DNA of 47,934 nucleotides from a virus (taxonomy: Duplodnaviria > Heunggongvirae > Uroviricota > Caudoviricetes). Made by a program: the position numbers and the translations under genes. Of the stretch, positions 35,828 through 39,736 are shown piece by piece (position 1 is the stretch's first letter; each line of letters opens with the position of its first letter). Below the pieces are notes generated by a model. That model was not told the origin of the DNA. It worked only from the letters and a program-made list of their open reading frames with translations, and searched no databases. The DNA lies in IMG/VR virus record IMGVR_UViG_2778261630_000003; one strand, 5' to 3'.

Positions 35828-38800
35828 ATGACCACTGTGAATAAAAAGTTAAAAAAAACTGCATCTGGCGCGATTACATGGTCGGTAATTGTTACCCAGA
35901 TATTATCTCCAGTTTCTCTTTCTTTGATCCCAGCAAACAGTTTTGCATCTTCTGGTAATAAAGATGTTACGCAAACTTATGCCAGCGATGAGCATGCAAA
36001 TAAAGTGGCCTCATTTGCAGCAAGTGCAGGTCAGAGCCTGGCGAATAATAATGCAAGTAGTTTTGCTGTAAATACTTTATCAACTCAGGCGACAAAAGAG
36101 GTCGTCGACTGGTTGCAACAATATGGCAATGCGCGCATCAAGCTTAATGTCGATGATTCTTTTTCCTTGAAGGATTCATCATTCGACTTTTTATATCCAT
36201 GGCTGGATACTCAGGATTATGTGCTATTCAGTCAGACATCACTACATCGTACTGATGACCGAAATCAGACCAATATTGGTTTGGGGATTCGTCATTTCAC
36301 TCCTGATAACGCAATGTTGGGTGCGAATGTTTTCTATGATTACGATTTAAGTCGCAGTCACTCTCGTGCAGGTTTTGGGGTTGAGTACTGGAGAGATTAT
36401 TTCAGGCTTGGTGTAAATACCTATTTTGGTTTGTCTGACTGGAAGAACAGTCGGGATATTGATGATTATCTGGAAAGACCCGCAAATGGCTGGGATTTTT
36501 CTGCTGAAGGATGGCTACCTGCTTATCCGCAATTAGGGGCATCCATTCAGTTTGAAAAATATTATGGTAAAAATGTCGGGTTATTTGGAAGCGATAATCT
36601 GCAGGAAAACCCTTACGCAGTTACTGGGGGAATTTCTTATACACCAGTTCCTCTGATTAAGTTTTCTGCACAGCATAAGCAAGGACAGAGCAACGTTCAC
36701 GATACAACCTTCGGTGTTGAGTTTAATTATCGCCCGGGCGTTTCCCTGGCTGAACAGCTTAGCAGCGATAATGTTGCAGTTATGCGAGAAGTCCAGAATC
36801 GGCGTTATGATTTTGTTGAACGAAATAACAACATTGTTCTGGAGTACAAGAAGAAGCATGCACTGAAAATCAGTTTGCCAGAGTCTGTTCAGGGGGAGGG
36901 GGAATCAATCATCCCTGTAACACTGACAATCAACAATGCTAGTGGTGGTATCAAGTCTGTACAGTGGAATGATAGTGCATTCACTGCGGCTGGCGGCAAG
37001 ATCAGTGGAAATGGCACATCATGGCAGATCACTTTACCGGCTTATAAAAGCGAAGGTGTAAATTCGTGGAATGTTGGAGCCACAGTCCAGGATAACAGAG
37101 GCAATGTTTCCAACTATGCCGTTATGAATATCAGCGTTAATAATAGTGGTGTCTCGACAGCGGATTCATCTTTTACGCTGGATGGGGATTCGTCTCCGAC
37201 GATCTCTGCTGATGGTCAATCCACTTATCCAATAGTATTAAGCCTGAAAGACAGTAACGGTAAGGCATTAACCGGACTGGCTGATGACATTGAAATGTCT
37301 GTGGAATTTACTGCGGATAGCAATAGTGCTCGACAGCGTGAAACGGTAACTGCTCCGTCATTAGGCGCGGTAGAGGAAATCTCTGCTGGTGTATATCGCT
37401 CTGTTCTGGCTGCTGGTTCGCAGGCTGGGACGGTACGTGTAACTGCAAAAGTTCAGGGAAAAACCTTTACTCTGAATATTAAGCAGGCAGCCGTTATTGA
37501 TAGTGATGTATCGACAGCGGATTCATCTTTTACGCTGGATGGGGATTCGTCTCCGACGATCTCTGCTGATGGTCAATCCACTTATCCAATAGTATTAAGC
37601 CTGAAAGACAGTAACGGTAAGGCATTAACCGGACTGGCTGATGACATTGAAATGTCTGTGGAATTTACTGCGGATAGCAATAGTGCTCGACAGCGTGAAA
37701 CGGTAACTGCTCCGTCATTAGGCGCGGTAGAGGAAATCTCTGCTGGTGTATATCGCTCTGTTCTGGCTGCTGGTTCGCAGGCTGGGACGGTACGTGTAAC
37801 TGCAAAAGTTCAGGGAAAAACATTTACTCTCAGTATTAAGCAAACAGCAGCAACAGAACCTGATTCTGAGGTCAGTGCTGTTTTAACCGCTGCACCAGCA
37901 GAACAGGTAGTTGGTTACAATATCAATCTACAACTGGCAGTGAAGGATTCACAAGGAAATGCAATCACTGGTGATAACACTCTGAGCTTTTATGCTCTTA
38001 ACCAGGCAGAAGGAGTCGAGTTTGGGACTGTAACGGAAAAAGACGGTGTCTATAGCGCGACAGTAACTTCAAAACGAGCTGGTAAGATTACTATCGGTGT
38101 TAAATCTGATAGTCATGATTTCTCAGGTGTTAAGAAAGAAATCACCTTTATTGAGGACCGGCAGCAGGTTACATTCTCTCAGTTTGAAGCCAGCCAAAAT
38201 AATGCATTGGCTGATGGAAAACAGAGAAATATGGTAACTGTAAGCCTTGCGGACCGTTTCGGCAATGTTGTTCCTGGTTATGCTGTCACATTGTCTTTAC
38301 CAGCAGGGATAACTCAAGTTGGTGGTGAACATGCTGTTTCAACTGACGAAAATGGTAATGCTATTTTTGCGTTAATAAGCTCCACTCCGGGGTCTTACGT
38401 GATTACAGCTCATGCTGGTTCTCAGATGTCTACTGAGTTAACAGTGACCTTTGCATCAAATATGACCGGAGCTTCACTGTCACTGACGCCTGAAAGCAGT
38501 AGTTTAATTTCCAATATTCCTGCTAATGGTAAGGATGCAGCGGTATTAGATGTGCAGCTGACAAATACGAATGCGTCGGTCAATGGGCAAAAGATTCAGC
38601 TCATCACCTCATCTGAAGGATTATCTGTACCAACAAATATCGTGACTGATTCAACAGGGCATGTTTCTGTTCCGCTTACAACGGTGAAAGCTGGTGAGTA
38701 CACGGTGACTGCACGGGTGACTGACGGTTCCCATAGCGTGGAATCTGGCAGCGTTAAGTTAACTTTTGTGCCCGATGTTGCTTCTGCAGAACTTACTATG

Positions 38801-39736
38801 AGTGTATCAAAACAAGAGATTGTGGCCGATGGCAGTGAAAACGCAACAGTAAACATTCAGTTGGTTGATGCGAATAACAATGCGTTTACAGGCGAGGTGG
38901 ATTTAACGATTACACCATCGACGGGAGCATCATTGACCAGTAGTAATCTGCAACTGGATGCTCATGGACAGGCAACAACGCAGTTCACTGCATCGAAATC
39001 AGGCCAGTACACAATTCAGGCCGAGTATGTTCTGGATGGGAAACGCATAACCGCAAGCCAGAATATTGATGCCGTGACGGATGTGAAGGGGGCTGTGTTG
39101 GAGATCACATCATCTGCATCTTCGGCTGTAGTGAGCGATACCAACAATCTGGTATTTACGTTACTGTTGAAAAGTAAGTCAGGCGAAGCATTAAGTGGTC
39201 GAGCATTGAATGTTAAGACATCTGGGCCGTCTAAATATGGTGCGTTGGTGGTTGATAAAACCACAGTAACGACTGATGAGAACGGTCAGGCTACGGTAAG
39301 CGTACATGGTCGAACGGTTGGTTCGTATAAATTAACGGCGACCTTAAACGAACTTGGCAGTGATGTTAGCGCGGTGAAATCATTCTCCCTGTACGCTGAT
39401 GACGCAAATGGAGTATTGACTCTAACAAAAGATCCTGGTTATGAGACAAACGATGGCTCTCCAGTAGGTATTTATGCTCGATTTGTCGATCATTTTGGAA
39501 ACCCATTATCTGGTACGGTTGAGTTTTCTGCTGGTAGTGAAGATAGTCCAGACTCTCAACGGGTCAAAATGGAGCCTGCTACAGTAACGTTACACTGGAC
39601 AGGTAATGCAGCTTCGGAATTCAGCACCTATGAAAGTGGTTATCACTGGATTAAGGCCAAAATAACGAATAGCAAAAATACATATGAGAAAACAATAAGG
39701 ACTTATGTTGTAAAACTACCTGAAAAGGATAGTTAA
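35828..39736 (+). CDS. invasin/intimin-family inverse autotransporter adhesin with tandem Ig-like (Big) domains
   Basis: 1302 aa; N-terminal signal-like region, beta-barrel region with FGVEYWRDYFRLGVNTYFGLSDWK motifs, then repeated ~100-aa Ig-like modules; embedded between P and nin region. Confidence 0.8.
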   Translation: MTTVNKKLKKTASGAITWSVIVTQILSPVSLSLIPANSFASSGNKDVTQTYASDEHANKVASFAASAGQSLANNNASSFAVNTLSTQATKEVVDWLQQYGNARIKLNVDDSFSLKDSSFDFLYPWLDTQDYVLFSQTSLHRTDDRNQTNIGLGIRHFTPDNAMLGANVFYDYDLSRSHSRAGFGVEYWRDYFRLGVNTYFGLSDWKNSRDIDDYLERPANGWDFSAEGWLPAYPQLGASIQFEKYYGKNVGLFGSDNLQENPYAVTGGISYTPVPLIKFSAQHKQGQSNVHDTTFGVEFNYRPGVSLAEQLSSDNVAVMREVQNRRYDFVERNNNIVLEYKKKHALKISLPESVQGEGESIIPVTLTINNASGGIKSVQWNDSAFTAAGGKISGNGTSWQITLPAYKSEGVNSWNVGATVQDNRGNVSNYAVMNISVNNSGVSTADSSFTLDGDSSPTISADGQSTYPIVLSLKDSNGKALTGLADDIEMSVEFTADSNSARQRETVTAPSLGAVEEISAGVYRSVLAAGSQAGTVRVTAKVQGKTFTLNIKQAAVIDSDVSTADSSFTLDGDSSPTISADGQSTYPIVLSLKDSNGKALTGLADDIEMSVEFTADSNSARQRETVTAPSLGAVEEISAGVYRSVLAAGSQAGTVRVTAKVQGKTFTLSIKQTAATEPDSEVSAVLTAAPAEQVVGYNINLQLAVKDSQGNAITGDNTLSFYALNQAEGVEFGTVTEKDGVYSATVTSKRAGKITIGVKSDSHDFSGVKKEITFIEDRQQVTFSQFEASQNNALADGKQRNMVTVSLADRFGNVVPGYAVTLSLPAGITQVGGEHAVSTDENGNAIFALISSTPGSYVITAHAGSQMSTELTVTFASNMTGASLSLTPESSSLISNIPANGKDAAVLDVQLTNTNASVNGQKIQLITSSEGLSVPTNIVTDSTGHVSVPLTTVKAGEYTVTARVTDGSHSVESGSVKLTFVPDVASAELTMSVSKQEIVADGSENATVNIQLVDANNNAFTGEVDLTITPSTGASLTSSNLQLDAHGQATTQFTASKSGQYTIQAEYVLDGKRITASQNIDAVTDVKGAVLEITSSASSAVVSDTNNLVFTLLLKSKSGEALSGRALNVKTSGPSKYGALVVDKTTVTTDENGQATVSVHGRTVGSYKLTATLNELGSDVSAVKSFSLYADDANGVLTLTKDPGYETNDGSPVGIYARFVDHFGNPLSGTVEFSAGSEDSPDSQRVKMEPATVTLHWTGNAASEFSTYESGYHWIKAKITNSKNTYEKTIRTYVVKLPEKDS
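37144..37857 (+). repeat. tandem duplication, 2 x 357 bp, inside the adhesin gene
   Basis: 37154-37460 is identical to 37511-37817; encodes two copies of a 119-aa Ig-like module. Confidence 0.9.

Follow-up and report, generated by a model that had tools for sequence, protein, structure and literature searches.

A prophage-borne inverse autotransporter of Escherichia coli with a variable number of near-identical Ig-like modules

Does a perfect tandem repeat inside a prophage gene for a predicted surface protein record a very recent duplication, and what might such a repeat do to the protein? The question is raised by a DNA stretch of 47,934 nucleotides (IMG/VR virus record IMGVR_UViG_2778261630_000003), termed the window hereafter, which is chromosomal and contains two prophages in tandem at icd. 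In the second of these, a lambdoid prophage, one gene encodes a 1302-residue protein of the inverse autotransporter (IAT) type, termed IAT here, and two 357-bp units of the gene are almost identical. An earlier note, made from the sequence alone, had described an invasin/intimin-like adhesin with a perfect and very recent duplication of one immunoglobulin (Ig)-like module. Our analysis indicates an old duplication under concerted evolution, and the number of modules varies among Escherichia coli strains. We consider it probable that IAT is a prophage cargo gene, the product of which has a stalk that changes in length by module recombination, as in the Periscope Proteins.

Domain architecture and relatives of IAT

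The N-terminal part of IAT matches the entire Pfam model IAT_beta (PF11924) with an E-value of 4.9e-101, and residues 97-341 resemble the solved barrels of invasin (PDB 4E1T, E-value 1e-73) and intimin (PDB 4E1S, E-value 8e-63). The β-barrel supposed by the earlier note is thus found, and the product is assigned by these matches to the inverse autotransporters (type Ve). In RefSeq, the identical gene is labeled “inverse autotransporter beta domain-containing protein” or “adhesin”. The barrel is preceded by a candidate signal peptide, recognized by eye from a KKLKK segment, a hydrophobic stretch and the sequence NSFA/SS at residues 40/41.

The passenger, which lies C-terminal to the barrel, gave Pfam matches to Big_1 in five stretches and to Invasin_D3 in seven. 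Searched in slices of 100 residues, it comprises one D00-like domain, two 119-residue modules, five Big_1 domains (E-values of 9e-8 to 1e-20) and a last domain of ~130 residues with a faint Big_1 match; the stalk has about ten Ig-like domains in total. Residues 342-441 are similar to the D00 domain of intimin (PDB 6TQD, E-value 1.3e-9), and residues 791-1039 to invasin (PDB 1CWV). The repeated module is indeed Ig-like, with a match to Invasin_D3 (E-value 1.2e-10) and with an Ig domain of FdeC as its best solved relative (PDB 4E9L, E-value 7e-7). Neither a LysM nor a C-type-lectin domain was detected by Pfam in the whole protein or in the slices. An exhaustive HMMER search of the C-terminal tip against 1.84 billion representatives returned its own cluster, fragments of that cluster, one fragment of 55% identity and weak generic Ig-repeat matches; the C-terminal 223 residues, used in a word-indexed search for homologues, yielded a single fragment.

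Comparison with the NCBIfam models placed IAT below every cut-off, with bit scores (score/cut-off) of 395/2400 for the IatC N-terminus, 338/1400 for intimin, 319/999 for SinH (IatB), 271/508 for YchO (IatA), 310/1125 for Ilp, 305/750 for YrIlm and 287/710 for Inv. Searching with the barrel DNA gave a bimodal result, in which 558 genomes matched at an identity of at least 95% and ~4,500 records fell between 60% and 80%. In the latter band, the matches listed are mostly annotated as fdeC, the barrel DNA of which is about 66% identical to that of IAT. FdeC of strain Nissle is collinear with IAT, sharing 34% identity over 1206 residues with the barrel most conserved, and carries two Ig modules at the place that matches both repeat copies. 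Because of the 34% identity, the different locus and the identity gap that separates this band from the class at 95% or above, IAT is judged to be a distant paralogue of FdeC and not its orthologue, with FdeC as the closest paralogue.

FdeC (EaeH) and IAT have in common the secretion type, a barrel without LysM, an all-Ig passenger without a lectin tip, a similar length (1416 residues in FdeC) and, if the candidate of IAT is genuine, a signal peptide; however, FdeC is encoded at the chromosomal fdeC locus, whereas IAT occupies the P-ybcN slot of a prophage. In addition, no high-identity tandem pair was seen at the equivalent position in FdeC of the one strain examined, and the C-terminal tips of the two proteins are unrelated. 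Intimin and invasin have homologous barrels, a D00-like domain and Big_1/Invasin_D3 domains in common with IAT. They end in a lectin-like tip, whereas IAT possesses neither LysM nor a C-type-lectin-like tip, and lacks the context of the locus of enterocyte effacement (LEE) or of Tir. IatA-D, SinH and YeeJ belong to the same family, yet IAT falls under the cut-offs for IatC, SinH and YchO, and compared to YeeJ, IatC and IatD it lacks the LysM or lectin domain. In a survey of E. coli inverse autotransporters, Goh et al. (2019) distinguished seven barrel groups at fixed chromosomal positions; none of the six proteins tabulated there has 1302 residues, and a prophage is not mentioned (PMC6714894). 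The “intimin-like” genes of the papers that we retrieved are FdeC, SinH/Ila or IatC/Air. Altogether, IAT fits none of the E. coli inverse autotransporter models compared (the NCBIfam equivalogs and FdeC).

Copy number and age of the 357-bp repeat

Tandem Repeats Finder reported a repeat of period 357 at 37135-37842 (2.0 copies, 98% matches, no indels, score 1367), and an exact-seed repeat search gave two copies 357 bp apart with 99% identity. Base-by-base comparison at an offset of 357 revealed no mismatch over the 307 nt between 37154-37460 and 37511-37817, the identity already noticed before, and the perfect run extends to 37464 and 37821, respectively, to reach 311 nt. The period of 357 bp is thus borne out, but perfection is restricted to this core, as the full units are 97.5% identical, with all mismatches confined to the first 19 and the last 27 nt. 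Each unit consists of 119 codons and is in frame, and the two protein copies are identical at 113 of 119 residues.

Among 5426 complete E. coli genomes, 558 contain a 901-bp barrel segment at an identity of at least 95%, almost all of them a single time. About one in ten of the complete genomes thus carries an intact IAT, including the pandemic ST131, where it is accompanied by iss and sitABCD. A 106-bp probe was placed over the junction from copy 1 to copy 2, so that a full match requires at least two copies; counted as genomes and not as independent events, it matched 475 genomes at 835 places, one to four per genome with a median of two. The difference between the barrel and junction counts leaves ~80 genomes that are apparently single-copy, and a median of two junctions means that at least half of the multi-copy genomes have three copies or more, with a median of three. 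Since up to four junctions occur per genome, a few genomes should have four or five copies, or two loci. In complete genomes, a 1401-bp probe is matched by spans of 1044 or 1401 bp, and the gene of the ST131 strain JJ1886 has three units. Proteins of 1302, 1421 and 1540 residues correspond to two, three and four units, all in frame and in intact open reading frames, and one-copy genes of 3549 bp are found among the IMG/VR loci. The variation in stalk copy number anticipated by the earlier note therefore exists, with one, two, three and four copies among complete genomes and protein records.

Short-read assemblies break at the array, and draft contigs end inside it in L021, L029-L033, L036 and L038-L042; gene length and copy number in draft genomes are therefore unreliable. 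A 357-bp contig labeled Moraxella osloensis (L044, CAXORL010000232.1), exactly one unit long and carrying 97% of the unit residues, is almost certainly a pile of contaminating E. coli reads collapsed on the repeat. A candidate paralogue with a different N-terminus in ST131 (matches starting from query position 338/344) was rejected, since JJ1886 has the same gene with three copies and the coordinates had come from joined overlapping BLAST pieces. In one protein of 1423 residues (P0004, E. coli UMEA 3489-1), a hybrid unit, in which mid-repeat sequence is fused to the last part of the preceding D00-like domain, comes before a further full copy, which reflects either a duplication with different breakpoints or a misassembly. 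The complete genomes H24-H29 have the IAT gene interrupted by insertion sequences (IS) of the IS66 or IS3 family, which inactivate it in some lineages. The matches on plasmids are confined to three very large “plasmids”, which are probably pieces of chromosome. In Escherichia albertii NBRC 107761 (L043), a partial gene located where a contig ends is 80% identical in residues 1-237; beyond this and the contaminant, no relative outside E. coli was found among the GTDB species representatives scanned.

Units of four alleles (the window, L003, L004 and L005) were aligned, and their interior was defined as unit positions 20-331. The copies differ at one interior site within the window allele, at two within L004 and at two to four within L005. 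In most alleles, the interior differences within an array number 0-5, compared to 12-23 between lineages; the two copies of the L003 lineage (L003, L013-15 and L020) differ from each other at 12-13 sites. All alleles, including those with repeats 4-5% apart, have the same 357-bp period, register and junction. They also share diagnostic edges, which distinguish the first copy from later ones on the left and the last copy from earlier ones on the right. Accordingly placed, the middle copy of a three-copy allele combines a later-copy left edge with an earlier-copy right edge, and one-copy alleles, which occur in all three lineages with lineage-specific markers, combine a first-copy left edge with a last-copy right edge. 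The shared junction and register, together with the likeness of copies within each allele, point to an old duplication, the interior of which was homogenized, and its copy number altered, again and again by unequal crossing-over or gene conversion, from which the outer edges escaped. These patterns indicate a single old duplication under concerted evolution and not a very recent one. The change of copy number itself can be recent, as near-identical one- and two-copy alleles exist; the one-copy allele L022 differs from the window at one interior site.

If, as the earlier note had it, one module had been duplicated very recently in the window lineage, this would account for the absence of any difference over 311 bp and for the existence of one-copy alleles that are almost identical to that of the window (L022, L023 and L031; H42-H47). 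We nevertheless consider it improbable, because alleles 12-18 of 312 sites apart keep the same period, register and first- and last-copy edges, and because copies resemble each other within an allele and not the matching copies of other alleles. The interior differences retained by the L003 lineage and the two Ig modules at the same place in FdeC also speak against it. Moreover, an array reduced to one copy cannot recreate an identical junction by homologous recombination, and no microhomology was seen at both ends that would favor the reuse of breakpoints. An assembly artefact, which might have produced the repeat or its copy number, is the least probable explanation of all. It would agree with the frequent breakage of short-read contigs within the array, owing to which some one-copy calls from drafts could be collapses, and with the 357-bp orphan contig in an unrelated assembly. 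However, the two-copy sequence is 100% identical across 5.3 kb in the complete genomes A3, A26 and H22, and the exact 1302-residue protein is found on 77 contigs of a public collection; an identical two-copy gene in independent complete genomes means that the repeat is not peculiar to the assembly of the window. In addition, the one-, two- and three-copy states are all found in RefSeq “complete genome” assemblies, and every copy state is in frame within an intact open reading frame. A perfect internal repeat, as this old but homogenized pair illustrates, need not be young.

A variant of this history, in which one ancestral copy of an L003-like pair became fixed in the window lineage and the opposite copy in that of L004, was rejected because the distances misfit (12/14 and 20/22). 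When the window and L004 alleles, which are near-identical elsewhere, were compared, 35 of the 51 nucleotide differences fell inside the 714-bp array (in the stretch 37028-37928), most of them synonymous. Relative to L004, the array is thus a divergence hot spot that simple homogenization leaves unexplained, and replacement of the array by recombination is possible.

Selection and proposed role

Compared to the L003 allele, the window gene has a synonymous divergence (dS) of 0.17 and a nonsynonymous divergence (dN) of 0.027, which gives a dN/dS of 0.16; by region, the ratio is 0.07 in the barrel, 0.23 in the distal Ig domains and 0.11 in the tip. Against the L004 allele it is 0.07, and the barrel ranges from 0.03 to 0.07 across comparisons. 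These low ratios mean that the IAT gene is under purifying selection despite the decay of the prophage.

We propose that the protein is exported by Sec, after which the N-terminal 12-strand barrel would insert into the outer membrane. Hairpin export would then bring the C-terminal passenger, with its about ten Ig-like domains, to the outside, where it would stand as a rod on the cell surface. To judge from the intimin/invasin structures and from studies of FdeC, YeeJ and IatB-D, its role would most likely be adhesion or biofilm formation. The AT-rich leader of the gene is likely to be subject to H-NS silencing, and once the prophage is induced, IAT could also be transcribed by read-through from pR. 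Unequal crossing-over or gene conversion would keep the two 119-residue modules near-identical and would also add or remove modules, giving one, two, three, four or possibly five copies, each of which might alter the stalk by about one Ig domain, or roughly 3.5-4 nm. The cassette travels with the ExPEC (extraintestinal pathogenic E. coli) icd prophage that carries iss and sitABCD, with the prophage decayed and IAT intact in the window.

Periscope Proteins have been defined by repeats of more than 50 residues at an identity of at least 80%, the number of which varies between strains, in a class that takes in inverse autotransporters; they are reported to sterically block other surface interactions (PMC8201768; PMC9704523). 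IAT has units of 119 residues with 113 identical positions, and one, two, three or four of them among strains. On these repeat criteria it fits the class, and its modules, Ig-like by homology, may form a rod. Similar to the proteins described by Whelan et al. (2021), it would be a monomeric surface protein with long near-identical tandem domains, the number of which changes by recombination. They differ in the extent of the array, which exceeds 40 repeats at the extreme of the class but comprises only one to four or five units in IAT; in addition, only two of the about ten stalk domains of IAT are involved, and the gene is prophage-borne. With its natural alleles of one, two, three and four copies, IAT would offer a compact case from a Gram-negative bacterium on which to test the Periscope idea. 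IAT is an uncharacterized example of kinds already known: it belongs with the predicted inverse autotransporter adhesins, with repeat proteins of the Periscope type and with the cargo genes of lambdoid phages, and will hold little surprise for the specialist.

Several observations weigh against this interpretation. IatB, IatC and IatD are surface-located and promote biofilm when overexpressed, but bound no extracellular-matrix protein (PMC6714894), so that “adhesin” may here mean biofilm formation or aggregation only. Instead of a lectin tip like that of intimin/invasin, IAT has an orphan C-terminal domain, the 133 residues of which have no PDB relative by sequence, and the single-sequence AlphaFold2 model of the last 223 residues, although all-β, has a predicted local distance difference test (pLDDT) score of 37 and is too poor for use. 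The earlier note had given the gene its own AT-rich upstream region, and the leader is indeed AT-rich (GC content of 0.32, compared to 0.52-0.58 in P); two σ70-like hexamer pairs lie at 35742-35769 and 35779-35806, but such promoter-like sites are at chance level, with 10 found and 11.7 expected from shuffled sequence, and no clear Shine-Dalgarno sequence was found before the ATG of IAT. As to mobility, the gene is absent from 50,697 phage records, though its flanks match, and no sequenced isolated phage has it. The genome counts are inflated by clonal sampling of ST131, and literature searches from the angles of accession, prophage, ST131 and sitABCD found no publication on the gene.

Other roles were considered for the gene. 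It might be a decaying passenger of a dead prophage without present function, as suggested by the loss of int (internal stop), ydaT (frameshift) and the lysis-head-tail block in the window and by the IS elements within IAT in some genomes. This is improbable in view of an open reading frame that stays intact, at 1183-1540 residues, across hundreds of genomes, of dN/dS values of 0.07-0.16 (and lower in the barrel), and of copy-number changes that are all in frame. Slightly less probable still, the protein might serve the phage, as a surface rod that shields receptors from superinfecting phages or aggregates lysogens. The slot is one where lambdoid phages keep exclusion or defence cargo, other envelope-modifying cargo lies nearby (the porin, the exported esterase, and iss in JJ1886), and the steric blocking reported for Periscope Proteins would suit such a rod; however, all characterized relatives are adhesins or biofilm factors. 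Somewhat less remote, though unlikely, is a phage-mobilized adhesin of tunable length, in which the number of modules is selected so that the tip reaches past the O-antigen or capsule of the host lineage. Three copies predominate in the ST131-rich set; under this reading, IAT would be an unrecognized colonization factor that accompanies iss and sitABCD on the ExPEC icd prophage. Compared to these, a cargo gene for an inverse autotransporter with Periscope-type variation of stalk length remains the most probable reading.

The cargo cassette and its prophage setting

The coordinates of the gene, its domains and the surrounding elements are collected in Table 1. When the window is compared with the related phage Lambda_4C10, homology breaks off at 35568, ten bases short of the P terminus, and restarts at 39769, just past a hairpin; the slot in between holds ren, emrE and a gene for a 508-residue hypothetical protein. 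This confirms that the gene sits between P and the nin region, in the place of ren in related phages, and the IAT cassette (35569-39768, ~4.2 kb) replaces the ren-emrE-hypothetical gene segment of these phages. In strain 144 (L003), IAT resides in a prophage with another immunity region at another chromosomal place and without the esterase gene, and homology extends as far as 39775 of the window and restarts at 41122. The comparison with L045, which has the esterase but no IAT, places the start of homology at 39769. The breakpoints of L003 and of the phage thus show that the IAT cassette and an esterase cassette (~39776-41121) are independent. The P-nin slot carries IAT in at least three prophage backgrounds, and 37 IMG/VR loci have IAT, mostly as prophage calls from isolate genomes. 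The esterase without IAT occurs in eight isolated phages, including Lambda_4C10, 4A7, D2, 1W, 3W, Perceval and PhiR47_2. In its translation, the esterase shows a signal of lipoprotein type (...SVGSC) and the active-site motif GDSAG.

Table 1. Positions of the IAT cassette, the domains of IAT and selected prophage features in the window
Feature	Position	Strand	Element	Evidence
P27-type terminase	5622-7855		e14-like prophage	
Tail sheath	13322-14818		e14-like prophage	
Pin-like resolvase, with invertible segment of opposed tail-fibre/assembly genes	24801-25391		e14-like prophage	
McrA-like HNH protein, 277 aa	25498-26331		e14-like prophage	
Integrase with internal stop	26843-27985		lambdoid prophage	
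ydaT, frameshifted	33326-33864		lambdoid prophage	
Replication gene P, left anchor of the slot	34877-35578	+		Phage_lambda_P, E-value 8.5e-62
AT-rich leader of the IAT cassette	35569-35827	+		left boundary by blastn against L045 (without IAT)
Inverse autotransporter (type Ve) gene, IAT, 1302 aa, ATG start	35828-39736	+		open reading frame list, Pfam, PDB matches
Probable Sec signal peptide, aa 1-40	35828-35947	+		by eye from translation
12-strand IAT β-barrel and linker, aa 57-334	35996-36829	+		PF11924, full length
First Ig-like domain, D00-like, adjoining the barrel, aa 335-435	36830-37132	+		intimin 6TQD match; weak Big_13
Repeat copy 1, 119-aa Ig-like module	37135-37491	+		repeat searches; Invasin_D3; FdeC 4E9L
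Repeat copy 2, same as copy 1 across unit positions 20-330	37492-37848	+		repeat searches, alignment
Five more Big_1/Invasin_D3 Ig-like domains, aa 675-1169	37850-39334	+		Pfam on slices; invasin 1CWV
C-terminal tip, aa 1170-1302, all-β, nearly orphan	39335-39733	+		faint Big_1, E-value 0.064
GC-rich hairpin between convergent IAT and esterase genes, right end of the cassette	39748-39768			folding, phage comparison
BD-FAE-type α/β hydrolase (esterase), lipoprotein-type signal	39773-40816	-		BD-FAE, E-value 5.7e-45
ybcN/ninB-like gene, right anchor of the slot	41264-41719	+		NinB Pfam; ybcN in A3
essD running straight into gpJ; lysis, head and most tail genes deleted	44998-47934		lambdoid prophage	

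The base composition sets the cassette apart from its surroundings, with a GC content of 0.32 at 35550-35849 and of ~0.40-0.48, on the whole about 0.44, in the IAT gene, compared to 0.50-0.53 in the nin genes and about 0.53 in the phage genes on either side. The hairpin at its right end has nine base pairs, seven of them GC, and a folding energy of -18 kcal/mol, and is followed on the plus strand by CUUUUU; the U-tract on the minus strand is poor. Of the bidirectional terminator suggested earlier, an intrinsic terminator for IAT is thus convincing for the plus strand only. Rfam gave no match in the window. Similar to the lambdoid morons lom, bor/iss and the nmpC/Lc porin, IAT is inserted between conserved phage genes, has a deviant base composition and a predicted terminator of its own, and is predicted to encode an envelope product, and it shares a prophage family with iss, the porin and sitABCD. 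At 3.9 kb, however, it is far larger than classic moron cargo, and it encodes a predicted type V secreted adhesin. From its boundaries and composition, we classify IAT as self-contained cargo, a “moron” cassette that occupies the P-nin slot in prophages of the DLP12/lambda type.

The lambdoid prophage of the window is a defective remnant, which keeps an intact repressor gene, cro, O, P, IAT, the esterase gene, ybcN-ninE-ybcO-rusA-ylcG-quuD and the gene of an OmpC-like porin. The window from 26565 onwards shares 99.94% identity with the lambdoid remnant of strain A3, where the element directly follows an intact icd. In both A3 and H22, sitABCD and another icd' fragment close the element. JJ1886 carries this element in largely complete form, although the tail-fibre genes are annotated as partial. 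It runs in the order int, xis, exo-bet-gam, the repressor, O, P, an IAT of 1421 residues, the esterase, nin, Q, holin-lysozyme-Rz and iss, followed by terminase, portal, capsid, tail and J genes, and then sitABCD. Lysogenic conversion, which the earlier note had raised, fits the origin of the gene; as the prophage in the window is defective, it is not a present property of this element.

At 1-26331, an e14-like myovirus prophage is represented by its late half. A fragment of the 3' part of the isocitrate dehydrogenase gene (icd', ~26562-26729) lies between both prophages and marks a shared attachment site that was used twice. A circularly permuted phage genome, which might have placed tail genes before int, is ruled out by the two tandem prophages with icd' between them. 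Downstream of the Q antiterminator gene, an OmpC/NmpC-like porin gene occupies 43326-44408 on the minus strand (Porin_1, E-value 2e-151); it adds to the envelope cargo of this prophage family and occurs in phage Lambda_4C10 as well.

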